From Escherichia phage vB_EcoS_W011D: DNA of 49,847 bases. Where the stretch lies: the sequence record NC_054893.1; one strand, given 5' to 3'. The stretch's first letter is position 1. Each line of letters opens with the position of its first letter. This document shows, one piece after another, positions 10,396 to 49,847 of this stretch. Position numbers and translations under genes: made by a program. The notes beneath the pieces are model-generated. The model saw only the letters and a program-made list of their open reading frames with translations. It ran no database searches and was not told where the DNA came from.

Positions 10396-10415
10396 GTTTT
10401 AGCAATTCGTGCTAT
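10396..10415 (-). promoter_or_regulatory. Conserved 20-bp box copy (ATAGCACGAATTGCTAAAAC)
   Basis: Overlaps the TAG stop of the upstream gene; followed by hairpin GAGGACA/TGTCCTC with TAAAGT in the loop region and the conserved leader GCGAAACGAGGAG. Confidence 0.6.
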
Positions 10416-15176: not shown

Positions 15177-15322
15177 TTTAGTAAGCAAAACGCCCTTGCA
15201 TTGTATGCGTGTTTCATTACCACCTCGCGAGCCTCCAGGCAACGCGCTTTGCTGTGGAATTCCTGCGTTGTAACCGCCTCGCCTTGCATGGTGGAAATAA
15301 CCAGGATTAGAACGTGAATCAT
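15173..15322 (-). CDS. Small ORF, about 49 aa
   Basis: ATGA overlap with the stop of gene 15319-15606; GGAGA RBS; manual translation. Confidence 0.35.
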   Translation of the reverse strand: MIHVLILVISTMQGEAVTTQEFHSKARCLEAREVVMKHAYNARAFCLLK

Positions 15323-15606
15323 CCGAAAGTCTCCATTATGCCAAAAAGTGAAATCAGCGATTTATTGCGCTTCCTGCGATATTTGCGCATAACCATGCTA
15401 ACATCGCCTATCTGATGGCCTAACGTAATCGGCATTTCCGATCCGTCGCCATAGTCGTTTTCGCCTTTCTTGGGCTTGTTCTGCCAGGCCTGGATAAATC
15501 CGAACTTGTCGCGTGTAACATAGCGGTATATGTTCGGGAGGTGAATCTTGATGCCCTCAAAATCAACCTCCGCGCTATAGCTCCTGAAATTAAGCGTGGA
15601 ATTCAT
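15319..15606 (-). CDS. Hypothetical protein (start uncertain: 15606 or 15627)
   Basis: Track ORF 15319-15630 whose listed first codon is not ATG; internal ATG starts are possible. Confidence 0.35.
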   Translation of the reverse strand: MNSTLNFRSYSAEVDFEGIKIHLPNIYRYVTRDKFGFIQAWQNKPKKGENDYGDGSEMPITLGHQIGDVSMVMRKYRRKRNKSLISLFGIMETFG

Positions 15607-15748
15607 AAACAACAACCCCCATTTCATCAATCACTTGCGCCTTGTAGTAACCGCCGTTTGCCGCCAGCAAATACGCCTGGCTCAGTGTTTCAAACTCGCG
15701 GGTTACTGGCTGGCTTTGCTCGTGTTCCCAAGTAATCAAAGTGGTCAT
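15590..15748 (-). CDS. Small hypothetical protein (52 aa)
   Basis: Track ORF 15590-16057 trimmed to internal Met (MTTLITWEHE) preceded by CGAGGATTTAGCA leader; the upstream part of the track ORF overlaps the lipoprotein gene. Confidence 0.45.
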   Translation of the reverse strand: MTTLITWEHEQSQPVTREFETLSQAYLLAANGGYYKAQVIDEMGVVVYEFHA

Positions 15749-15803
15749 TGCTAAATCCTCGTTTCGTTTCGATGGGGTTACTATATCGCAACCCCTGAAT
15801 CGA

Positions 15804-16964: not shown

Positions 16965-16992
16965 ATTATAATCAGGCCGCGCGACGTGTCAA
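16965..16992 (-). promoter_or_regulatory. Consensus sigma70-type early leftward promoter (TTGACA - 16 nt - TATAAT)
   Basis: On the minus strand: TTGACA at about 16987-16992 and TATAAT at about 16965-16970 with a 16-nt spacer; A-rich upstream tract. Confidence 0.6.
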
Positions 16993-17029: not shown

Positions 17030-17650
17030 AAAGACAAAACAGCGCCTAAGTCATTGAAAACAGGCTGTCTTTTTTTCTGTTAACGCTGTTAACGAGTTGC
17101 GGAGGATTAAATATATATAGATGCGCACACGCCACCCCACCCAGGCGAGCGCATACCCATATATCACTATACATCAATCCAGACACTACCCCATATCCAC
17201 CATAAACAGTGTGAACAATAAAAACAACAAATAGATATATATAAATAAATATACTTTAATTTCAATGTATTATAGAGGATTTATAGTGTTTATTTTGTTT
17301 ACTCAACACCGAAAAACGGCGCGGAAACAATGCGGAGAAATCTGTGAACACCCATGAACAAGAGGAGACAAAGCGCCATGGCGAGAGCGAAAACTTGACA
17401 CTTGCGAACCAGGTTTCACCATTCCCCACACAATCAGTAAAAATTCACACTAATTATTGTCTAAACTGCAACAATCACTATCTTGCATGATGTGCAACGA
17501 TATGCGGCTATCATTTCAGATTTTGCAATGGTGCTGCAAAGCGGTTGTTTTATACACAATCCATCAATAGCACTTTTTGTTAAAAGCGATCGGATCTGAT
17601 TTGCTATAGTTACTTCATCGAAACGGGATACCCAATCAGGAGCAAGCAAG
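17030..17650. other. 620-bp AT-rich non-coding region between the divergent early operons, carrying a ~150-bp element homologous to one in 36530-36990
   Basis: No ORF of 60 aa or more with an RBS; contains ACAAATAGATATATATAAATAAATA and GTGAACAC boxes shared with the second region. Confidence 0.6.
17567..17586 (+). promoter_or_regulatory. Conserved 20-bp box copy (ATAGCACTTTTTGTTAAAAG), first of the rightward early block
   Basis: Followed 18 nt later by TATAGT and the CATCGAAACGGGA leader before the 17652 start. Confidence 0.6.
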
Positions 17651-17651
17651 C

Positions 17652-17927
17652 ATGAACATCAGCAAAACTACTTTCAACTTTGCCAAGAAACGCGGTCTGG
17701 ATCTGACTGTTGAGGATTTCGGCGACGGTCTGCAACTGTGCATTTGGGAAGCTGATAACGATTGCGAATGGCTTTGCTCCTACCGCATCAACTATGACAA
17801 CTTAACCTGGCATGGCAACGTTTACCTCCCGCAAGAGATTAAAGAGGAATTACCAGCAACTATTAGCAACGAGGTTTTCTTGCGCCAGGTGCTGAAATTC
17901 ATCAGCGACGAAATGAAAAAGGCTTGA
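17652..17927 (+). CDS. Hypothetical protein
   Basis: 91-aa track ORF with AGGAG RBS. Confidence 0.45.
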   Translation: MNISKTTFNFAKKRGLDLTVEDFGDGLQLCIWEADNDCEWLCSYRINYDNLTWHGNVYLPQEIKEELPATISNEVFLRQVLKFISDEMKKA

Positions 17928-17946
17928 TAGCACTTTTTGTTAAAAC
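17927..17946 (+). promoter_or_regulatory. Conserved 20-bp box copy (ATAGCACTTTTTGTTAAAAC)
   Basis: Starts at the stop of the upstream gene; followed by hairpin GGGGTT/..CCCC with TGGCATAAT. Confidence 0.6.
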
Positions 17947-18853: not shown

Positions 18854-19047
18854 TTAGATATGCTGCGTATCTTGTAAGCAGGATTGACAGGAACGACAAA
18901 ACGCTAATTGCAACCGCTAACAACCTGGTTAACGCAATCCAGGCGTTTGAGGACTACAACACGCATCACATCAACCGGAATTACAAAAAGGTTGTAGAGC
19001 GTCAGCGCTGCGAGTGGGTAACGGAAGATAAAATCACATATCTTTGA
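18850..19047 (+). CDS. Hypothetical protein
   Basis: 65-aa track ORF; ATGA overlap with the upstream gene. Confidence 0.4.
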   Translation: MIRYAAYLVSRIDRNDKTLIATANNLVNAIQAFEDYNTHHINRNYKKVVERQRCEWVTEDKITYL

Positions 19048-19048
19048 A

Positions 19049-19068
19049 ATAGCACTTTTTGTTAAAAC
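19049..19068 (+). promoter_or_regulatory. Conserved 20-bp box copy (ATAGCACTTTTTGTTAAAAC)
   Basis: Followed by hairpin GCGCCC/GGGCGC with TGGTATAAT between the arms. Confidence 0.6.
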
Positions 19069-21077: not shown

Positions 21078-21093
21078 CACTTTTTGTTAAAAC
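21074..21093 (+). promoter_or_regulatory. Conserved 20-bp box copy (ATAGCACTTTTTGTTAAAAC)
   Basis: Contains the TAG stop of the upstream gene; followed by hairpin GTTGCCG/CGGCAAC with TATAAT in the loop. Confidence 0.6.
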
Positions 21094-21146
21094 AGGGTAG
21101 TATTGTTGCCGTTATAATTAGCGGCAACAAGAAAGGAGATTTTCAG

Positions 21147-22727
21147 ATGTACGATTTTGAACAAAAACGCTTATCACCAAAAGATATTATCGACACTGCC
21201 GAAAGCCTGGGCGTTTCGCCTCTGCGTGTTGCAATCAACGCAAACGGCTACCGCCAATCATCCAGCTTTTGGGGCGATGTTCAAGATGTTAATTCAGGCA
21301 ATGACCGCTACCCTGTAATTTCGTTGGGAAACGATATTGACGTTGTAGGAAAACTTTCAAGCAATATTGCAAAATCAGTTCAGTTTCCGGCCTCATCAGC
21401 CTATATGCACTTTGTAGGTTGCGTGTCTGCTGCAATGCTCGGTCGTTTTACTGTTGATTATCATGGAACCGATCAGCCAACGGCGCTGTATGTTGTGACA
21501 AGCCAGCCGCCGTCAACTGGTAAATCTGCGATCAACAGCCTGGCGATTGCTCCTATGGTTTGCGAGGTTGAGCGAATCAACGAACAACGCAAGAAAGAGC
21601 GCAAAAAGATTATGGCTAAACTCGCTGGCCTTGCTAAAGAAATGAAAAGCGAGAGATCAGGCGCTGATATGGCGGCACTGTATGAGGAAAAGGAAGAATT
21701 AGAGGAGAAATTGCAAAAACTGTGTGATGTTGTTTTTCCTGTTTCCGACACCACGCCAGAAGGTTTGGCGAAAATCAACAACCGCCAAGGAAATTTTGCG
21801 GTTATCTCGGATGAAGCAACCAGTATTAACAGCTTATTGGGATTGACCTACGCCAACAGCGAGCGCAAAACTAACAGCGAATTGGTGTTAAAAGCATGGG
21901 ATGCGGGACACGTTTCTATTGCTCGTGCCAACGCAGAAAATAACATGAGTTTTAAAGCGCTGGGTTGCATGAGCGTAATTGCTCAGGATGAAACGATAAG
22001 CGGCATTATGGAGGCTGGTTCACGCGGTATCGGTGTTAGTGAGCGTTTCTTGCTGGTTCGTGAAGAATCGTTTTTAGGTCGCCGCACGTTCATTGATGAT
22101 GATGGTGATTCAACCTTTGAGCCAGTAGATCCGACACTGAAAGCGCAATATTATCAACTTATTCATAACATCATGACGGAGGCGGAAGTTTCATTGAAGA
22201 TCAGCAAATCCGCAATGAAATGCTTAAACCGCGCTCGCCAGGAAATGGAGCCAGATCTTGCAGACGGCGGAAAATATTCACATACCATGTTGCGCGGTGC
22301 GCTGGGTAAAATGGATAAGCAAGTTATTCGCATTGCATCAGTTCTGCATGTAATCCGCAACTGGTTCAATGAAAGCGGATCGCCTCAGAAGTCGAGAGAA
22401 ATTGAACTGGAAACTATGCAAGAGGCTTTAATCATGTTCCAGGAGTTGAGCAAAACATACATCAGTGCGGCGAATGCTTCCGGTCACGCTGGCGATGATG
22501 CCGAAATGAGCAAGTTAATCGACATTATCACGCGCCACGGCAAAGCCAACAAAGGGATCTTAAGTGTTCGCGCAATTTACGAATCGGCACGCAAGGTTAA
22601 ACCATTCCTGGGGCAAGCTGGCATTATGAAGCGCATAGAGGAAAATTTACTGCCAATGCTTGAAGATCGAAACTATGTTTGCGTAATCAATGGGCGTGTC
22701 TTTGTGAATCCTGCTTTATTGGGGTGA
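21147..22727 (+). CDS. Large ATPase with Walker A-like PSTGKS (replication-associated, DUF3987-like guess)
   Basis: Track ORF 21084-22727 trimmed to MYDFEQ start with AAAGGAGA RBS; P-loop-like TSQPPSTGKSAIN about 130 aa from the start. Confidence 0.4.
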   Translation: MYDFEQKRLSPKDIIDTAESLGVSPLRVAINANGYRQSSSFWGDVQDVNSGNDRYPVISLGNDIDVVGKLSSNIAKSVQFPASSAYMHFVGCVSAAMLGRFTVDYHGTDQPTALYVVTSQPPSTGKSAINSLAIAPMVCEVERINEQRKKERKKIMAKLAGLAKEMKSERSGADMAALYEEKEELEEKLQKLCDVVFPVSDTTPEGLAKINNRQGNFAVISDEATSINSLLGLTYANSERKTNSELVLKAWDAGHVSIARANAENNMSFKALGCMSVIAQDETISGIMEAGSRGIGVSERFLLVREESFLGRRTFIDDDGDSTFEPVDPTLKAQYYQLIHNIMTEAEVSLKISKSAMKCLNRARQEMEPDLADGGKYSHTMLRGALGKMDKQVIRIASVLHVIRNWFNESGSPQKSREIELETMQEALIMFQELSKTYISAANASGHAGDDAEMSKLIDIITRHGKANKGILSVRAIYESARKVKPFLGQAGIMKRIEENLLPMLEDRNYVCVINGRVFVNPALLG

Positions 22728-23124: not shown

Positions 23125-23245
23125 TGATCTGATTTATGCGCTGTTAACCATAATGCGAGCCGACATGAAAGCGTTTGGCGACAAGGAGCATAATTTATGT
23201 GATGGTGATGGCGTGATATTGGTTAACGTCAGATTGCTTGAATAG
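23051..23245 (+). CDS. Possible overlapping small ORF (64 aa); may be spurious or a frameshift partner
   Basis: Overlaps 22732-23124 by 74 nt in another frame; weak RBS; its stop lies in the next box copy. Confidence 0.2.
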   Translation: MKNYSAQKLIDEILKHCAVNSISHDDLIYALLTIMRADMKAFGDKEHNLCDGDGVILVNVRLLE

Positions 23246-23261
23246 CACTTTTTGTTAAAAA
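23242..23261 (+). promoter_or_regulatory. Conserved 20-bp box copy (ATAGCACTTTTTGTTAAAAA)
   Basis: Followed by hairpin ACCCGAT/ATCGGGT then TATATT and the CATCGAAACGAAAC leader. Confidence 0.6.
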
Positions 23262-23550: not shown

Positions 23551-23556
23551 AAAAAA

Positions 23557-23572
23557 GGAGCCGTTAGGCTCC
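23557..23572. terminator. Bidirectional rho-independent terminator GGAGCCGTTAGGCTCC
   Basis: Perfect 6-bp stem with A8 upstream and T-rich tract downstream; the stop codon and last codons of the u-spanin gene lie inside the hairpin. Confidence 0.7.
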
Positions 23573-23956
23573 TTTCTTGTTTCTACCGTAACCGATAGCA
23601 ACCAGCATGATAGCGATTGCAGCGAAAAACAAAACGCTCGTTTGCCAATCCAGGCCGCTATCTGAATTACGGATCTCTATCTTATCCGCCGTTATGGTTT
23701 CAGCCTGAATGCTTGAGGCGCTCACCTTCTTTTTGTTTGAGGTGTCAACCTTGCCAACGGCTGAATCCTTAATCGTGCTTTCCTGCTTGCTGCTGGTGTC
23801 CTGCTTTGCCGTTACGCCTACCGTTTGTTTTACGTTTTCTGCTCCGGCTTGTGCTGTGATTTCCGGCTTACTGCCAATCAAACCAGTCAGCGCGCTTGAT
23901 GCCGAACAACCGGAAAGCATTACCGAAACTGCAATTGCTGTGATTACTCGTTTCAT
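23564..23956 (-). CDS. Unimolecular spanin (T1 gp11-type): lipoprotein signal plus C-terminal transmembrane helix
   Basis: 130 aa; N-terminal signal with lipobox LSGC; C-terminal hydrophobic helix [16 protein letters not shown] followed by basic tail; directly downstream of endolysin with ATGA overlap. Confidence 0.65.
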
Positions 23957-28241: not shown

Positions 28242-30242
28242 TTAAAACTCCCGATGATAAATAATATCCTCGCCTTTCGCATTTTTGCGATGCGTAACCT
28301 TAACTGGCGGTAAAATATGATGTGCATAACTCATGATTTTACGCGCATTGCGATAGCTGGCAACCATTCCGGCAATTCTGCGATCTGGAATATGTTTAAG
28401 CGCCGTTTGTCGCCATTTCGTTTTGCAGATCTGGCTATCTGACTCAGGGAAAAACTTTTCGTAAGCCTTAAATGTTTCTCCGTGTGCCTCCAATTCATAG
28501 CAGAACACGATCCCTTTTTGGTTTTTCGTCATATCGACACGGAACGATTTCACATTGCACCAATCGTTTTTGGTGTAGTGCTTGCCGGATAACTTTTCGT
28601 TAGGGTCTATTAGTGACACATCACAATGACGGCAAATTCTCGCTACAACATCATTTTTTGTTCCGCAACCATGCACAATAACTTTTTTCGTGCGCGGGTC
28701 AATCTGATCTGTGCATTCTCTAAATTTCCAGAAGTGTTCACACCGATTACCATTTTCATCAACCTTTATGCAGCGGCGAGCGTAGAATGAATTTTCAGTG
28801 CCGCAAATCGGGCAATGTTTCGGATCTTTTCCGTTGTCGTGTCGGCGCTGAAACTGCGCTTGCTCCAGGATAGGATCAAAATAAAGTTGCCCTAATTCAT
28901 CCATGCATCCGGCAAAGTCTAAAACAAGATGATCGCTTTTCTTGAATCCCTGCTCAACATGCCATTTTTTAAGCAGTCGCATTCCGCGCCCTAAAAGCTG
29001 AATCAGCAACGTGAGCGATCCGATTTTTCGAAGAATAACGGATGTATCCCAAAACGGAACGTTAACGCCAGTTGTTAAGGCCATGACCTGGAAAATATAT
29101 TTCACTTTTCCCTCGTATGCCTCGCGTAACCATTCCTTACGCTGTTTTTCTCCTGTCTTGCCAGTGATAATGCGGTATGTTGTGCCAGGCGGTAAAGCCG
29201 CCGCCGCCTCTTTGCAATGTCGCTCACCAGCGCAAGTTACCAACACGCCGTTTCTGTCTTTGCAGATCTCATGCACGCGAGCCATAATTTTTTGTGTCAT
29301 GGTTGCGTCATTGTGGATCTTCTCCTCCATCTTGCGGAGTGTTTTCTGATCGAAGTCGGCAACGCCATCCTCGCTTGATGCCGTGAACTCTGAAAGGTCA
29401 TACCCCAGGCCATCAACATTGCCAAAATTCGTTGGCACAACAGAACCGAACTCGATCAAATAATTTGTGTCGATGTTCGTTACCTGCTCACGCCAGAAAC
29501 CTTTCTGCTTTTTATCCTCAACCAGAATTGGTACAACACCGCGAAATTCCGATCCAGTCATTCCAAAAATTCGCAACTCATGCCCGTAAGCCTCTTTACA
29601 ACGTCGCTGCATTTCACGAATGATTATTGTGTATTGGCTGCGTCCTGTTCCCTCCATTGGTTCACCGTCTTTTGTGAAAACTTGCGAGCCATCACCATTC
29701 AGGACGCGAACGCCTTTTTTAGTGGTCATTTGCTCGAATGTTTCCTCGCTTTCGATTGAATCCGCTAAATCTTCCCAATCGACCTGGTGACATTCGTCAA
29801 TACCGATAACATGCGGCACATAATCGCCAAGAGCCTTAAACAGACCATTTGCAACAGTTCCCTCGGAACCAACTACAATTGGAAAGTATGCGCTTTTGGT
29901 GTTGAGTCCTGCGCAATAGATAGAGTTTGGCACACCGAAGTTTGTGATCTCCTCTGAATCCTGATCCACAATTTCGGCCTGGCGAGCCAGCACCATCATT
30001 TTTAGCCCCATCTTTTTACACTGCGCGGCAACCATAGCAAAGATGATTGTTTTACCAGCGGAAACGGAAGCCTTTACGAAAAACGGATCGTTGTATTTAC
30101 TCAGGCGCTTTGCGATCTCAGCGTATGCAACGCACTGATAAGGATATGGCTTAATGTCGCCAACGGTAAAGCGATCCTGAATCGCCTTTATCACCGCATC
30201 GCCTAATGTAGATAATTGCTTTTTAATGTTTGGAATTGCCAT
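28242..30242 (-). CDS. SF2 (DEAD/DEAH-type) DNA helicase with C-terminal zinc-finger region
   Basis: 666 aa; Walker A SVSAGKT, DExH box IGIDECHQV, and C-terminal CPICG/CRHC cysteine pairs. Confidence 0.75.
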   Translation of the reverse strand: MAIPNIKKQLSTLGDAVIKAIQDRFTVGDIKPYPYQCVAYAEIAKRLSKYNDPFFVKASVSAGKTIIFAMVAAQCKKMGLKMMVLARQAEIVDQDSEEITNFGVPNSIYCAGLNTKSAYFPIVVGSEGTVANGLFKALGDYVPHVIGIDECHQVDWEDLADSIESEETFEQMTTKKGVRVLNGDGSQVFTKDGEPMEGTGRSQYTIIIREMQRRCKEAYGHELRIFGMTGSEFRGVVPILVEDKKQKGFWREQVTNIDTNYLIEFGSVVPTNFGNVDGLGYDLSEFTASSEDGVADFDQKTLRKMEEKIHNDATMTQKIMARVHEICKDRNGVLVTCAGERHCKEAAAALPPGTTYRIITGKTGEKQRKEWLREAYEGKVKYIFQVMALTTGVNVPFWDTSVILRKIGSLTLLIQLLGRGMRLLKKWHVEQGFKKSDHLVLDFAGCMDELGQLYFDPILEQAQFQRRHDNGKDPKHCPICGTENSFYARRCIKVDENGNRCEHFWKFRECTDQIDPRTKKVIVHGCGTKNDVVARICRHCDVSLIDPNEKLSGKHYTKNDWCNVKSFRVDMTKNQKGIVFCYELEAHGETFKAYEKFFPESDSQICKTKWRQTALKHIPDRRIAGMVASYRNARKIMSYAHHILPPVKVTHRKNAKGEDIIYHREF

Positions 30243-30331: not shown

Positions 30332-30775
30332 ATGAATCGAATCGCTGTTTCAACTGGTGAAGTGGATAAACGCACAATCAATGGTAATAACGGGACACGT
30401 CGCGGAAAAGACAAAAAGCCGCGCAAGCGCAAAACAGGTTACTACGTGCTGAAAGATGAAGTAAAGGCCGGATTGCGTGCGCGCCTTGATATCTTACTGG
30501 AGTATTACGGAACGCAAGCCGAAATGTCGCGCCGTTTGAAGGTGTCGTGTCAGACCATTAACCAATGGAAGAAACGAGGCATGATTTCCGCCAGCGGAGC
30601 GCACAAGGTTCATCAGGACTATAAGCGCCAGGGGTGCAAGGGCTATCGCGCTTCATTCTGCCGCCCCGATCTGAAATTCGATTCAAACGGCAAGCCGTTA
30701 ACACTCAAGTGTGAAAAGCGCGAAATGCTCCGCGTTGTTCGCGCCTCAGATTTCGAAAACAGCACAAATAGCTAA
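30332..30775 (+). CDS. Helix-turn-helix DNA-binding regulator candidate
   Basis: 147 aa; basic N-terminus; HTH-like AEMSRRLKVSCQTINQWKKRGMIS; first gene of the rightward primase operon. Confidence 0.45.
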   Translation: MNRIAVSTGEVDKRTINGNNGTRRGKDKKPRKRKTGYYVLKDEVKAGLRARLDILLEYYGTQAEMSRRLKVSCQTINQWKKRGMISASGAHKVHQDYKRQGCKGYRASFCRPDLKFDSNGKPLTLKCEKREMLRVVRASDFENSTNS

Positions 30776-30831: not shown

Positions 30832-31779
30832 ATGAGCGAAATGCACGAAAACATGATGTTTCAGAAAGAGGATGTTTTACCTTACATGAAAGGAATGTGG
30901 CGTGATGCGCTACAAAGCATTTGCGGACTACATTCTGACGTGTTCAATAAAAAACATCAGCCTTGCCCTAACTGCGGCGGCAAAGACCGTTTTAGATGGA
31001 CTGATAAACTTGATAGTGATGGCGACGGCGGCGCGATCTGCAACGGATGCGGTAATGATTCCGGCGTTGGCTGGATGATGAAACTTACTGGCGAGCCTTA
31101 CAGTGAAGTGATTAACATCCTGGGGCGCTTTCTTGGTAAGGTTCCGCAAGAGTACCGGATAAAGGCAAATAAACGCGCATCGCGTGCATCAGGTTACAGT
31201 TTCGGATCTCAGGCTCCGCACGAGAATTGCGTTGCTGTAATGGAGCGAACCGAACTGCGCCACAAAACGCCGTTAAGCGTTTTTGAGGGTATAGCGCCGC
31301 CAGATGATGAAATGTATTCCGTAGGTGTGAAAACTCTGGAGGATGGCGAAGAATCGTTAATTCACGCCATACCGTGTTACCTGGTGCATGATGATGAATT
31401 GGATGATGAAATGTGCAACATTCTTTTCATTGACGACAACGGAAATCAAAGTTTTTACGCAAAGGATTACACGCGCGGCTCGGTTGCGGTGACGGGTAAA
31501 ACTGACAAGACGATCTATCTTTGCGTTGATTGGGTTGATGCTCAACACATCCACTTATCGACGGGGCAAGAGGTTTGGGCGTGCTTCTCACAATACAATC
31601 TTGAAATGGTTGCATATCGCTATAAAGGAGATCGCAAAATGCGTGTCGTGTGCAAGCCTACCGATCAGGATGTGATAATCTCAGCGGAGGAAAGGGGACT
31701 TGACGTGATGATCCCGATTAACGATAATTTCAAACAAGGGATAGAGCGGAAGTTATACAAACCCGAATCTTTCCTTTAG
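30832..31779 (+). CDS. DNA primase candidate with N-terminal zinc-binding motif
   Basis: 315 aa; CPNCGGKDRFRW ... ICNGCGN zinc-ribbon arrangement near the N-terminus; adjacent to the helicase region. Confidence 0.5.
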   Translation: MSEMHENMMFQKEDVLPYMKGMWRDALQSICGLHSDVFNKKHQPCPNCGGKDRFRWTDKLDSDGDGGAICNGCGNDSGVGWMMKLTGEPYSEVINILGRFLGKVPQEYRIKANKRASRASGYSFGSQAPHENCVAVMERTELRHKTPLSVFEGIAPPDDEMYSVGVKTLEDGEESLIHAIPCYLVHDDELDDEMCNILFIDDNGNQSFYAKDYTRGSVAVTGKTDKTIYLCVDWVDAQHIHLSTGQEVWACFSQYNLEMVAYRYKGDRKMRVVCKPTDQDVIISAEERGLDVMIPINDNFKQGIERKLYKPESFL

Positions 31780-31865: not shown

Positions 31866-33941
31866 ATGGCTATTTATCGCACTGGACAAGCGTCTATGGA
31901 CGCTCAAGGATACATCACCGGATATGATACAAAATGGCGTGAGCAACTTTCATTAATCCGCCCTGGTGCAACAATCTTTTTTATTGATGCTCCTTTTCAA
32001 GCGGCTGTGATTAGTGAGGTTATCAGCGATACACAAATCCGCGCCATCACAACTGGCGGCGCTGAAATTGGGCGAAGCAATTACATCATTTTGCTGCATG
32101 ACTCAATCACGGTTGACGGCCTGGCGCAAGATGTTGCGGAAACTCTGCGCTACTATCAAAGCAAAGAAACTCAGATCGAGGAAGCTATTGAATTTTTCAA
32201 AAACCTTGACCTGAAAACTTTGCAGGATTTGGTTAATCAGATTAAAGGTGATGCAGAAAAAACAGCCGCTGATCGCGCTGCAACTGAACAACTGAAAAAC
32301 GACACTCAACAGATAAAGGATTCTGCTGTCGCTGAAACAAACCAGATCAAGTCCGACACTGACGCAATCAAAAGCCAAACTCAACAGATCAAGGATTCCG
32401 CTGTAAATGAAACGGAAGCCATTAAGCAAGGGGCTTTTGGCGCTCGCGATCAGGCTGAATTGGCGCGTGATGCGGCTGGAAATCATGCCGTTGATGCTAA
32501 TAATGCAAAGGCTGGCGCTGAGACTGCGCGTGATGAAGCGCGTCAATGGGCGCAACAGGTACAGCCTGAAAATCTGTTACATAAAGATCAGAACCTTAAT
32601 GATCTTGCAAACAAAGACCTTGCAAGGGAGGCGTTGAAAGTTGAGGCGGTTAATTCTGTAAAAGGTCAGGCTGCTGGAGATTATAACTCTTTCCGCAACC
32701 CTGCATGGACTTATGAATTGCGGATCGCTAACAATGGCGAATGGCGCGTTGCAAGAAATAGCGATGGATCAACGTCTGCTCTTTCTGTTGGCGCTGGCGG
32801 TACTGGTGCGGAAAACGTAGAAGGCGCAAGGATAAACTTTAGGCTTCAAGGATTTGACACATTGTCAAGTGAGTCAAGGGTATTAAATCCTCAAAATGTA
32901 AGCCAATACATATTTATGAATTCGATTGGTGGTTGGGGTGCTTACGACTCTGAAAATGTAAGAGCAATTCCGCTATCGCTTGGCAATGGTGGAACTGGAG
33001 GTACAGATCAGAATAGCGCTCGCCATAACTTAGGATTATCCATTAATCACTCCCCTGTTTTTGCTGGTATTGATTTGCAAGGTCTTAACGGCACAACGTC
33101 AGGGATCATGGTTTTAAGAAATAGAGATGCTGGAGGCGCTCAAGTTTCATACTCAAGAATTTACCATGAAATTCAGGCTGGAGTTGCCAGAACAACAATA
33201 CAAACAACAAGAGAGGGTGGTGGTACTAACTATTTTCAGATTGATGAAACTGGACTTGTTAATAATGTTAGGGCGATAAGATGTTCTCCGTCAAATGTTG
33301 GTGGCGAGGGATTTACCGTTGGCGTTGTTCCTGGTGGAGGATTTGCAGCCTGGAGAGATCGACCTGCTGGAATGATTGTTGAGCACCCAAGCGATGATGT
33401 TGCGGTTAACGTATTGAAATCTGTCCGTTGGGGCGGAGATTGGGTTATGGGGATTGACGCTGCAAGGTATGGCGCTGGAGGTTGCGAGGTTCATCTAAAT
33501 GTAAGAGGTACTACATATACATTTAATGATGCTGGTTATGCGTCTGCTGTTCAGTGGGTTAACACATCCGATATTCGCCTGAAAGCAAATCTAAAAGAGA
33601 TTGAAAGCGCTAAAGAAAAAGTGAAATCAATAAAAGGTTACACTTATTTCAAGAGGAATAATCTTGATGAAGATGAGCACTCTTTCTACTCTGAGGAAGC
33701 TGGTGTAATAGCTCAAGACGTGCAAAGTGTTTTGCCGGAAGCGGTTTACAAGATTTCAGATTCTGAATATTTAGGTGTTAGCTATGGCGGGGTTACTGCT
33801 CTTTTAGTTAACGCATTCAACGAAATGAGCGATCAGATTGACAAGCAACAAGAGGAGATCGAAACACTGAAATCTGAAATTGCAGATCTTAAAGCGGCGT
33901 TTGAGGCGTTACTCAACAAGCCAACAACGCTGGAAAGTTAA
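31866..33941 (+). CDS. Side tail fibre / receptor-binding protein with C-terminal intramolecular chaperone (peptidase S74-type) domain
   Basis: 691 aa; repeat-rich coiled-coil shaft; C-terminal SDIRLKANLKEI (Ser-Lys dyad motif) followed by a heptad-like coiled coil; AT-rich distal half with AGA/AGG codons. Confidence 0.75.
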   Translation: MAIYRTGQASMDAQGYITGYDTKWREQLSLIRPGATIFFIDAPFQAAVISEVISDTQIRAITTGGAEIGRSNYIILLHDSITVDGLAQDVAETLRYYQSKETQIEEAIEFFKNLDLKTLQDLVNQIKGDAEKTAADRAATEQLKNDTQQIKDSAVAETNQIKSDTDAIKSQTQQIKDSAVNETEAIKQGAFGARDQAELARDAAGNHAVDANNAKAGAETARDEARQWAQQVQPENLLHKDQNLNDLANKDLAREALKVEAVNSVKGQAAGDYNSFRNPAWTYELRIANNGEWRVARNSDGSTSALSVGAGGTGAENVEGARINFRLQGFDTLSSESRVLNPQNVSQYIFMNSIGGWGAYDSENVRAIPLSLGNGGTGGTDQNSARHNLGLSINHSPVFAGIDLQGLNGTTSGIMVLRNRDAGGAQVSYSRIYHEIQAGVARTTIQTTREGGGTNYFQIDETGLVNNVRAIRCSPSNVGGEGFTVGVVPGGGFAAWRDRPAGMIVEHPSDDVAVNVLKSVRWGGDWVMGIDAARYGAGGCEVHLNVRGTTYTFNDAGYASAVQWVNTSDIRLKANLKEIESAKEKVKSIKGYTYFKRNNLDEDEHSFYSEEAGVIAQDVQSVLPEAVYKISDSEYLGVSYGGVTALLVNAFNEMSDQIDKQQEEIETLKSEIADLKAAFEALLNKPTTLES

Positions 33942-34106: not shown

Positions 34107-34205
34107 ATGTCTGATATAACTCTGTTACCAACTGGCGGAGATTTTGGTGGTGAAGCTGGGCGGCTGGCCTTGGCGGTGCTGGGAATGGCAGAAAGCGAAA
34201 AATAA
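34107..34205 (+). CDS. Candidate micro-ORF, 32 aa (MSDITLLPTGGDFGGEAGRLALAVLGMAESEK)
   Basis: ATG with GAGGTG RBS; ends at a terminator hairpin; in the 290-bp gap between the fibre gene and SSB. Confidence 0.25.
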   Translation: MSDITLLPTGGDFGGEAGRLALAVLGMAESEK

Positions 34206-34209
34206 AAAA

Positions 34210-34225
34210 GGAGCCGAAAGGCTCC
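34210..34225. terminator. Terminator GGAGCCGAAAGGCTCC (same hairpin as 37226-37241)
   Basis: Perfect stem with GAAA tetraloop; T-run on the minus strand after the SSB gene, weaker T-tract on the plus strand. Confidence 0.65.
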
Positions 34226-34234
34226 TTTAGTCGT

Positions 34235-36515: not shown

Positions 36516-36543
36516 CATTCTAGCCATTTTTCGCGTTTAGTCA
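36516..36543 (-). promoter_or_regulatory. sigma70-type early promoter for the recombination operon (TTGACT - 16 nt - TAGAAT)
   Basis: On the minus strand, TTGACT and TAGAAT separated by 16 nt directly upstream of the exonuclease start. Confidence 0.5.
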
Positions 36544-36990
36544 ATAGGTGTAATGTTATTTTTTGTTTTCTGTTGTTTGTTTTCTATAGTGATAACAAAA
36601 TTGCATCGTAAGTTATTGATTTTGTCTTTGTTGTTTTTGTGTTTACCGTGTTCACAGATTTACGCCGGATATATAGGAATAGATACACATAAACAAAATG
36701 ACCATTACACAAAGTGAAATCACCACAACCAACCAAAAACCAATGAAACATAGAGAACAAAAAGAAACAAATAGATATATATAAATAAATAAACTCTTAT
36801 TTTTCATGTATATAGTAATATTTACTGTATGCTTATTGCTCAATAGCTGATTAAAAAATAAGCTAAATTTACGCCTACGCAAATTCGTGAACACTCTGGA
36901 ACAAAAGAAAACAAACGATAGCACTTTTTGCTAAAACTTCCGGTCGAGATCGTGTATAGTGAGCGCATCTAAACCAAAAGAGGAAAACAA
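36530..36990. other. 460-bp AT-rich non-coding region carrying the second copy of the ~150-bp element shared with 17030-17650
   Basis: No credible ORF; shares ACAAATAGATATATATAAATAAATA and GTGAACAC boxes with the first region, same orientation and spacing. Confidence 0.6.
36917..36936 (+). promoter_or_regulatory. Conserved 20-bp box copy (ATAGCACTTTTTGCTAAAAC) upstream of the Cor-like gene
   Basis: Followed 17 nt later by TGTGTATAGT (extended -10-like). Confidence 0.55.
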
Positions 36991-37219: not shown

Positions 37220-37225
37220 AACAAA

Positions 37226-37250
37226 GGAGCCGAAAGGCTCCTTTTTTATT
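37226..37250. terminator. Bidirectional terminator GGAGCCGAAAGGCTCC plus T6
   Basis: Identical hairpin to 34210-34225, between convergent genes. Confidence 0.7.
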
Positions 37251-47636: not shown

Positions 47637-47645
47637 TTCTCCTGA

Positions 47646-47665
47646 ATAGCATTTTTTGTTAAAAT
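47646..47665 (+). promoter_or_regulatory. Conserved 20-bp box copy (ATAGCATTTTTTGTTAAAAT), plus orientation inside the leftward tail module
   Basis: Followed 18 nt later by TAGAGT; sits between the major tail gene terminator and the chaperone gene, opposite to the gene direction. Confidence 0.5.
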
Positions 47666-49589: not shown

Positions 49590-49847
49590 TAACAAACCCT
49601 CCGGCGACGTAAACCAGACACAAGGCCAAAGCCGCCGCCTTTCTTCCGGTTTAATGTTTCATACATTTTGCCCCACGGTGTTTGTCGGATTTCTTTGCCG
49701 GATGAATCAGCGGAAACGCGATCAAACGTCTGTGAAAATTCACCACTCAGGGAAAATGACGCAACTCGACGGGAATATGAATCCACGCTCTCACCTTCCT
49801 GTTTCATAGCGCCGTCAAGCGTCATAAGGTGCAACGTATAGAGCGCA
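49589..49847 (-). CDS. Head-tail adaptor-like protein spanning the window ends (true gene is about 139 aa; N-terminal part at 82-242)
   Basis: Track ORF 49589-49834 starts at the window edge; in the circular genome the same frame extends upstream to an ATG near 242 with GGAGGAAG RBS. Confidence 0.45.

Follow-up and report, generated by a model that had tools for sequence, protein, structure and literature searches.

What function would make a phage keep two copies of one AT-rich intergenic element at sites 19.5 kb apart? The question is raised by the genome of Escherichia phage vB_EcoS_W011D (W011D hereafter; sequence record NC_054893.1), in which an initial annotation described a segment near 36.8 kb (copy 2) as the second copy of an element found near 17.2 kb (copy 1). 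The window analysed here is the whole stretch of 49,847 nucleotides, which represents the complete, circularly assembled genome (~49.77 kb, 46% GC). W011D is a T1-like siphovirus of the Drexlerviridae (Tempevirinae) with a gene set typical for that family. Its closest record is Escherichia phage PaulSarasin, with 95–99% identity across both intergenic regions carrying copies 1 and 2. The two elements are a real, family-wide conserved and apparently undescribed pair of cis-acting sites; no description of them was found in the searchable literature. Judging from their sequence, their most likely role would be in the initiation or the control of phage DNA replication, a reading that we hold with about even confidence.

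Two copies of one AT-rich element

The two copies are distinguished in the first place by their base composition. A scan of the whole genome in 80-nt windows, with a threshold of 24% GC, retrieved the stretches 17183–17320 (copy 1; minimum of 13.8% GC) and 36722–36877 (copy 2, a candidate DNA-unwinding element; minimum of 16.3% GC, in 36742–36821) and nothing else apart from a borderline piece at 36543–36638, which belongs to the same intergenic region as copy 2. An exact 26-mer, AACAAATAGATATATATAAATAAATA, is common to both elements on the plus strand (17226–17251 in copy 1, 36766–36791 in copy 2). It has just these two matches in the genome with up to 3 mismatches allowed, when 0 are expected (100 shuffles), and the common core of the two copies extends to 38 of 43 positions. 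Exact matches to GTGAACACnnnnGAACAA are likewise found at the two elements only. The repeat GTGAACAC follows at 17344–17351 and 36887–36894, +118 and +121 bp from the start of the 26-mer, respectively. It occurs four times in the genome (1.26 expected), three of these inside the two intergenic regions, where the third is inverted at 36648–36655. The shared 26-mer and the placement of GTGAACAC bear out the description of copy 2 as a second copy of the 17.2-kb element. That description had given it ~150 bp at 36740–36900; the position is correct while the size is underestimated, the conserved copy-2 unit being longer than 160 bp and spanning ~36620 to ~36916.

Both copies follow a common layout composed of three AACA-type repeats phased by ~10 bp, an AT core, inverted repeats, a GC box, and three more phased repeats. 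The AT core measures 60–110 bp per element at 13–16% GC, and the repeats around it are short and asymmetric, with 6–13 per element over 300–400 bp. Read from left to right, the copy-2 region comprises the promoter of the operon of the recE-like exonuclease gene, T-rich TGTTT runs that are A-tracts on the promoter strand, an IHF core, an inverted repeat block, an A+C-rich spacer, three AACA repeats, the AT core, a GC-containing box, three further AACA repeats and then a 21-nt box at 36917. The IHF site (36609–36621, minus strand) is a perfect match, AATCAATAACTTA, to the core consensus WATCAANNNNTTR (1 found versus 0.06 expected). The inverted block (36620–36668, minus strand) is a copy of the right repeat block whose minus-strand reading is GCGTAAATCTGTGAACACGGTAAACACAAAAACAACAAAGAC; it includes GTGTTCAC as well as the inverted GTGAACAC mentioned above. 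The left repeat block (36746–36769, plus strand) abuts the AT core and displays AACA at 36747, 36756 and 36766 with a spacing of 9–10 bp. The right block (36887–36916, plus strand) is made of GTGAACAC, GGAACAA and GAAAACAAAC, with AACA at 36890, 36900 and 36910, spaced by exactly 10 bp. Between the AT core and the right repeats lies the GC-containing box AGCTAAATTTACGCCTACGCAAATTC (36861–36886, plus strand), of which the ATTTACGCC portion recurs at 36660–36668; a related GCGCTAAATTTACG adjoins the repeats in copy 2 of Klebsiella phage GH-K3. The order of parts is the same in copy 1: a left repeat block AAACAGTGTGAACAATAAAAACAACA (17205–17229, plus strand), the sequence TATTATAG (17268–17275), which reads TATAAT on the minus strand, inverted TGTTT repeats (17287–17300), and a right repeat block (17344–17371, plus strand) formed by GTGAACAC, ATGAACAA and GGAGACAA at 10-bp spacing.

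Three other identities were tried for the element and rejected. It is not a structured RNA, as no Rfam match was obtained at E ≤ 1, nor a hairpin signal, the DNA folding z-scores relative to shuffles being +0.05 and +0.28 in W011D and −1.7 and −0.4 in relatives. It does not hide a small gene: all six frames are stopped within the 80-nt core in 29 of the 55 related loci described below, no frame is open in the core of W011D copy 1, and the alignment of the element features 1–2-nt indels.

Conservation and lineage-specific repeats

The presence of two copies had been taken to suggest a maintained functional unit, and the comparison of synteny in related phages that was suggested as a check was run for both. 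Copy 2 was surveyed with the recE-like protein as anchor in 55 related viral contigs (6-kb loci). The lowest-GC point of the locus lies 300–380 bp upstream of recE, and has the same sequence type, in 55/55. The DUF7174 gene neighbouring copy 1 retrieved no relatives in IMG/VR, and the DUF3987 helicase gene was used as anchor instead. The equivalent of copy 1 was found ahead of the early genes, 1.6–5.7 kb upstream of the helicase gene, in every locus that was sufficiently long, i.e., not ended earlier by the contig end; one locus narrowly misses the GC threshold. Both copies are also present at syntenic sites in each of the phages T1, Rtp and GH-K3, where they are the two lowest-GC points (168–335 and 29983–30118 in T1; 216 and 28090 in Rtp, within the ~22.7 kb fetched; 49176 and 15430 in GH-K3). 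This persistence at syntenic sites supports a unit that is maintained; the result named beforehand as speaking against it, conservation of a single copy among relatives, was not obtained. A search of PLSDB gave no plasmid match for the element.

A joint alignment of both copies from 16 genomes (32 sequences) yielded a consensus composed of the blocks aAACA....aAACA, ATATATATAA.TAA, ATTgaTTT, TAT, TGTTTtTT.TGTT, CG, GCGG and AACA...ggaAACA. The aAACA....aAACA columns, to which the left repeats correspond, are at least 80% conserved among 30 unique related sequences, the right repeat block is kept in relatives as AACA...ggaAACA, and TATTATAG and TGTTTtTT.TGTT are conserved blocks as well. The core is better conserved than its flanks: segment 17205–17329 of copy 1 shows 83–84% identity in dozens of coliphages, while the intergenic DNA on either side of it is not alignable in these phages. 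The element is also preserved when its surroundings change. The recE-erf-ssb module of Webervirus has the opposite orientation to that of the coliphages and is found behind the primase gene on the same strand; the GH-K3 element has moved and been inverted together with the recE module. Its copy 2 (15271–15765), in which at least 10 ATCTTAC motifs are found within ~400 bp, lies between the co-directional primase and recE genes, which makes the element independent of a divergent-promoter setting.

Two further repeat features were observed next to the elements of relatives. The haarsle record annotates an unexplained 'repeat_region' (2685–2718) over the AAAATCAC repeats, rich in A+C, immediately to the left of its copy-2 core. 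In T1, copy 1 (~400–500) carries the extra tandem motifs GTGTTAATC (three times), GATTAACA (three times) and GGCGTAAT (twice), which were not seen in copy 2.

The sequence of the repeats varies by lineage yet matches between the two copies of one genome. This was found by an unbiased search for GC-containing 7-mers that are present in both regions and enriched relative to the rest of the genome. The top shared 7-mer is GTGAACA in W011D (4/7 genome copies located in the two regions, p = 1.9e-6), TGTTACA in T1 (6/6, p = 5.5e-11) and ATCTTAC in GH-K3 (13/17, p = 1.7e-20). In GH-K3, moreover, all eight genome copies of ATCTTACC are in the two regions and the two copies have a common core of ~52 nt, while Rtp-like phages feature GTATAC-type repeats and a long core common to both copies. 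Copy pairs from the same genome align with a local score of 34.5, compared with 24.2 for pairs from different genomes, and 0 of 20000 permutations reach the observed value across the 16 genomes, some of which are near-duplicates and thus not fully independent. Identities taken from the multiple sequence alignment give a weak difference (0.577 for same-genome versus 0.560 for cross-genome pairs) since that alignment split the common 26-mer; the local scores were used instead. Lineage-specific repeats common to both copies point to a phage-encoded, sequence-specific binding protein. Repeats that change with the lineage, and are matched at two distant sites around the most meltable DNA of the genome, would be the behaviour of iterons and their initiator.

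Replication, transcription or packaging

The elements may well constitute a pair of iteron-type replication origins, or one origin accompanied by a second cis-acting replication site; given their organization and their resemblance to known origins this is the reading that we prefer, with the scales close to even. The AT core would melt first, as a DNA-unwinding element. It is bracketed by arrays of GTGAACAC / RAACA in both orientations, repeated at one helical turn, to which a phage-encoded sequence-specific protein would bind. Candidates are the DUF3987 (SF6) replicative helicase (21084–22727), through its winged-helix C-terminus, and a Cro-like HTH protein (30332–30775) encoded just upstream of the P4-alpha-like primase and assigned to the phrog category 'transcriptional regulator'. 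The bound protein would then bend and open the AT core, after which helicase and primase of the phage would load onto the opened DNA. Protein binding, melting, initiation and the firing of both copies are all predicted steps of this scheme.

Two hallmarks of such origins are found in the elements. A replicon-specific cluster of short repeats is provided by the phased AACA/GTGAACAC blocks that flank the core and by the lineage-specific top 7-mer, and the adjacent AT-rich unwinding element by the fact that the lowest-GC segments of the genome are the elements themselves, likewise in T1, GH-K3 and the fetched part of Rtp. The replication genes are also compatible with origins. The primase (30832–31779) carries a zinc ribbon of the primase-helicase type, and its homologue in P4 is the N-terminal primase domain of the alpha protein (P4 4636–6969; 23% identity over 235 residues, tblastn E = 2e-10). 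DUF3987 proteins belong to the replicative SF6 helicases; they are related to MCM and have a winged helix at the C-terminus (PMC4889955), and helicase activity was demonstrated for one member (PMC11724360). A P4-alpha-like primase together with a DUF3987 helicase fits the origin reading; the two are encoded by separate genes of the same strand, 8 kb apart, and the genome codes for an SF2 helicase as well. T1-like phages have no identified origin (PMC11447400; PMC7718038), and none is annotated in the GenBank records that were examined.

A number of observations weigh against replication origins. No protein stands out as the partner of the repeats. The C-terminus is the most divergent part of the helicase, yet only moderately so between lineages with different repeats; its divergence does not track repeat type, and one relative with similar repeats is not closer in this region. 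Among W011D, T1 and GH-K3 the HTH protein does not exceed other replication proteins in divergence. A search for more HTH genes of the ST23-like kind returned close relatives only. A single-sequence AlphaFold model of the helicase C-terminus (pLDDT 59) is too poor to be used and its Foldseek matches, all with E > 0.4, are meaningless. A PDB sequence search with the helicase, the helicase C-terminus and the HTH protein gave nothing significant, the HTH protein weakly resembling Cro (E = 1.2). A PHROG scan of 20 small early proteins revealed no annotated initiator, and comparison of the P4 alpha origin-binding domain with all W011D proteins found no sequence homologue, the primase domain alone being matched. 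On the DNA side, no DnaA box lies near either core, and none was found consistently. The IHF match is weak evidence, its position not being conserved: many relatives have a match to the consensus inside the AT core instead (TAACTAATTGATT), which is absent from the W011D core. Copy 2 of W011D has degenerate right-hand blocks relative to the family consensus. The A-tract-like repeats (AAACA at 10-bp phase in this subfamily) could simply curve DNA upstream of promoters, and the two best sigma70 promoters, ~230 bp from the cores, fit a transcriptional role equally well.

These last points lead to a serious alternative, possible though rather unlikely in our estimate, in which the elements are transcriptional control regions of the early genes. 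The AT core and the phased A-tracts would be curved, nucleoid-protein-binding upstream DNA, and the lineage-specific repeats would be operators of a phage regulator, e.g., the Cro-like HTH protein, in the manner of lambda OL/OR. Both of the strongest early promoters, along with the box promoters next to them, would be turned on or off by such a regulator. Both elements are indeed found in promoter-bearing intergenic regions. Copy 2 lies between the sigma70-type promoter of the exonuclease operon and the box-type promoter of the Cor-like gene, as initially annotated; both were found. The first of them (TTGACT-16-TAGAAT, minus strand, 36544->36517) is the second-best sigma70 match of the genome (10/12) and is kept in T1 as TTGACT-16-TATAAT. 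It is 224 bp left of the copy-2 core and directed away from it. The best match of the genome (12/12) is a perfect TTGACA-16-TATAAT consensus (16965–16992, minus strand) found 236 bp left of the copy-1 core; its side and its orientation are those of the first promoter, and it is also directed away. In copy 2 the right repeats border directly on the cor promoter with its 21-nt box, a conserved minus-strand TATAAT borders the core, and in T1 some GTWACAC motifs stand beside the TTGACA that serves the first gene of the leftward early operon, an operator-like arrangement that also speaks against an origin. Lambdoid operators, too, consist of two sites with lineage-specific repeats.

The arrangement of the repeats is less easily accounted for by transcriptional control. 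They do not overlap the −35/−10 sequences of the strong promoters, the nearest being ~105 bp upstream, and the right block of copy 1 is ~190 bp away from any promoter-like box. Short and asymmetric repeats in such number, distributed around a core of 13–16% GC, are typical of iterons and unlike dimer operators. The structure of the element is kept in GH-K3 despite the co-directional upstream gene. A canonical sigma70 promoter inside the element was rejected, since the 32 aligned sequences, scanned with a position weight matrix, have no conserved −35/−10 pair on the plus strand; all that the minus strand offers is a TATAAT whose −35 is poor (CAGAAA), in 12/32 sequences. A regulatory hub is also compatible with an origin: regulation of neighbouring promoters by initiators is common, as is the activation of origins by transcription.

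The 21-nt box beside copy 2 deserves a separate description. The sequence GATAGCACTTTTTGCTAAAAC (36917–36937), followed by TATAGT (36955–36960), forms the box-type promoter region of the Cor-like gene (36917–36960, plus strand) and is flanking context, outside the element. The 21-nt repeat ATAGCACnnnTTGnTAAAA is present in ~20 copies (e.g., 17565–17585, 17925–17945, 19047–19067, 23240–23260, 36917–36937, 47644–47664), with inverted ones at 10397, 11698, 15075, 27793 and 30300. As shown at 17565 and 36917, the TTG of the box lies 21–22 nt upstream of a TATAGT-like hexamer, a spacing too long for a normal −35/−10 pair, which hints at an activator site or at promoters of an unusual class. The box is a known TLS/T1 repeat whose function is listed as an open question (PMC11447400). 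The element is not another form of this repeat, since its AT core has no match to the consensus and it is present exactly twice in the genome compared to ~20 dispersed copies.

If the elements are replication sites, the two copies might be functionally differentiated as proposed for SPP1 (see the comparison below), a refinement that we consider doubtful. Copy 1 would be the firing origin and copy 2 a fork barrier or a second origin. Protein-bound copy 2, always attached to the recE-erf-ssb operon, would trigger the switch to recombination-dependent concatemer synthesis. In T1, copy 1 is inside the 2.8-kb terminal redundancy, 170–335 bp from the pac end, so that virion DNA from the first headful would carry copy 1 at both ends. 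If true, initiation, recombination and packaging would be physically coupled in T1-like phages.

It is improbable that the elements are accessory packaging or recombination sites, namely a bending aid for the terminase at pac or entry sites for RecE/Erf. In favour of such a role, the T1 record begins at position 1 with an annotated terminal repeat of 2.8 kb, and this point aligns to 17472, within TGCAAC/TTGCA repeats ~245 bp right of the copy-1 core; many contigs and records are opened inside the copy-1 intergenic region, and copy 2 travels with the recE-erf-ssb module. Against it, copy 2 has neither a TGCAAC-repeat region nor terminase genes nearby, and the part common to both copies (the core and GTGAACAC-type repeats) is separate from the pac-like stretch; besides, a single pac site suffices for headful phages. 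The identity of the element as the pac site or genome terminus itself was rejected, T1 position 1 mapping outside the common sequence and nothing comparable being present near copy 2. The TGCAAC / TTGCA repeats form a run over 17440–17545, after copy 1 and ahead of the first of the early genes, and like repeats are found at the same place in Rtp-like phages and Webervirus; this stretch, in which many public records and contigs are opened, is probably the pac region. Finally, that the elements have no function, as AT-rich intergenic leftovers or junctions of mosaic modules sharing low-complexity sequence, is hardly credible: AT-rich low-complexity DNA does align easily and the core is mostly (TA)n- and (ATA)n-like, but this is already contradicted by the conservation data, i.e., an exact 26-mer against 0 expected matches, both sites conserved across four lineages, GC-containing lineage-specific motifs confined to the two sites, and a core more conserved than its flanks.

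Genomic context and comparison with known systems

[quoted passage not shown] Near-identical bidirectional terminator hairpins, AAAGGAGCCGAAAGGCTCCTTT, are found at 23551–23575, 34204–34228 and 37220–37244, at three convergent gene junctions that include both ends of the block holding copy 2, the recE operon and cor. Two other repeats of the genome lie elsewhere. Two 56-nt direct repeats (32283–32413), 75 nt apart and 77% identical, are located within the gene of a 691-amino-acid tail fibre and encode a repeated peptide segment (…QQIKDSAV…). Positions 1–81 and 49767–49847 of the window are identical (81 bp); this is an overlap left by the assembly of a genome that is circularly permuted or was circularised, and no biological terminal repeat.

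T1 belongs to the seven classic T phages, and in collections and therapy panels the Drexlerviridae rank with the commonest phages of E. coli and Klebsiella. Through two sharply defined conserved elements the question of the T1-like origin becomes directly testable. The elements are annotation targets in several hundred genomes and candidate cis sites for engineering, for instance in plasmid amplification that depends on the phage or as safe deletion sites. If the origin reading is right they would join a known kind, the iteron-type origins, and, alongside SPP1 and P4, would provide a further case in nature of an origin-type sequence kept in duplicate by one phage.

Among known systems, lambda OL/OR resembles the W011D elements in having two sites with the same lineage-specific repeats beside the main early promoters. 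It differs in that the W011D repeats do not overlap promoters and are asymmetric, numerous and placed around an AT core. In the T4 origins oriF and ori(uvsY), a promoter is followed by a downstream unwinding element and the primer is provided by an R-loop. The conserved minus-strand TATAAT of W011D (17275–17270 in copy 1) similarly borders the AT core and points into it, but is accompanied by no recognisable −35 or MotA-type box, and its version in copy 2 is degenerate. The TLS/T1 21-nt repeat aaATAGCACnnnTTGnTAAAA is, like the elements, a conserved non-coding repeat of T1-like phages, with one copy directly right of copy 2; its sequence is another one and its ~20 copies are dispersed upstream of genes.

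The origins of lambda and of iteron plasmids (P1, F, R6K, pSC101) combine clustered direct repeats for their own initiator, an AT-rich region and, frequently, IHF sites. The iteron sequence changes between related replicons. In lambda, the origin is inside the initiator gene and the iterons are 18–19 bp long. Compared with lambda and the iteron plasmids, the W011D repeats are 7–8 bp long and flank the core left and right, in a unit of which the genome has two. Iterons of the lambda type were looked for in phage TLS and none were found (PMC11447400).

Satellite phage P4 offers a likeness in several respects. Its ori and crr are both needed and have a common 8-mer, at 10–11-bp phase and in both orientations, around AT-rich DNA; the W011D primase is homologous to the primase domain of alpha. 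The P4 type-1 repeat TGTTCACC (GGTGAACA) even contains GTGAACA, the W011D 7-mer, an identity that is probably coincidental because relatives of W011D use the unrelated TGTTACA, GTATAC and ATCTTACC. The P4 sites are 4.8 kb apart, compared with 19.5 kb in W011D, and alpha unites primase, helicase and origin binding in one protein while separate genes are found in W011D.

[quoted passage not shown] There is no sequence or protein homology: SPP1 relies on gp38, the loader gp39 and the DnaB-type gp40, whereas W011D has a DUF3987 helicase and a P4-type primase. In addition, oriL is inside gene 38 while both W011D elements are intergenic, and origin function was demonstrated in SPP1 whereas the W011D elements are known from sequence alone. 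The two phages are nevertheless alike in their general design. SPP1 is also virulent, a siphovirus of the pac type whose two origin sequences are several kb apart, its AT-rich islands are likewise the strongest compositional bias in the genome, and it also encodes a 5′-3′ exonuclease, an annealing recombinase and an SSB for the switch to concatemers (PMC6316719). The oriR of SPP1 is proposed to stall replication forks, leading to recombination-dependent concatemer synthesis by these three proteins (PMC6316719). Copy 2 in T1-like phages is always attached to an operon of just this kind, encoding an exonuclease, an annealase and an SSB.

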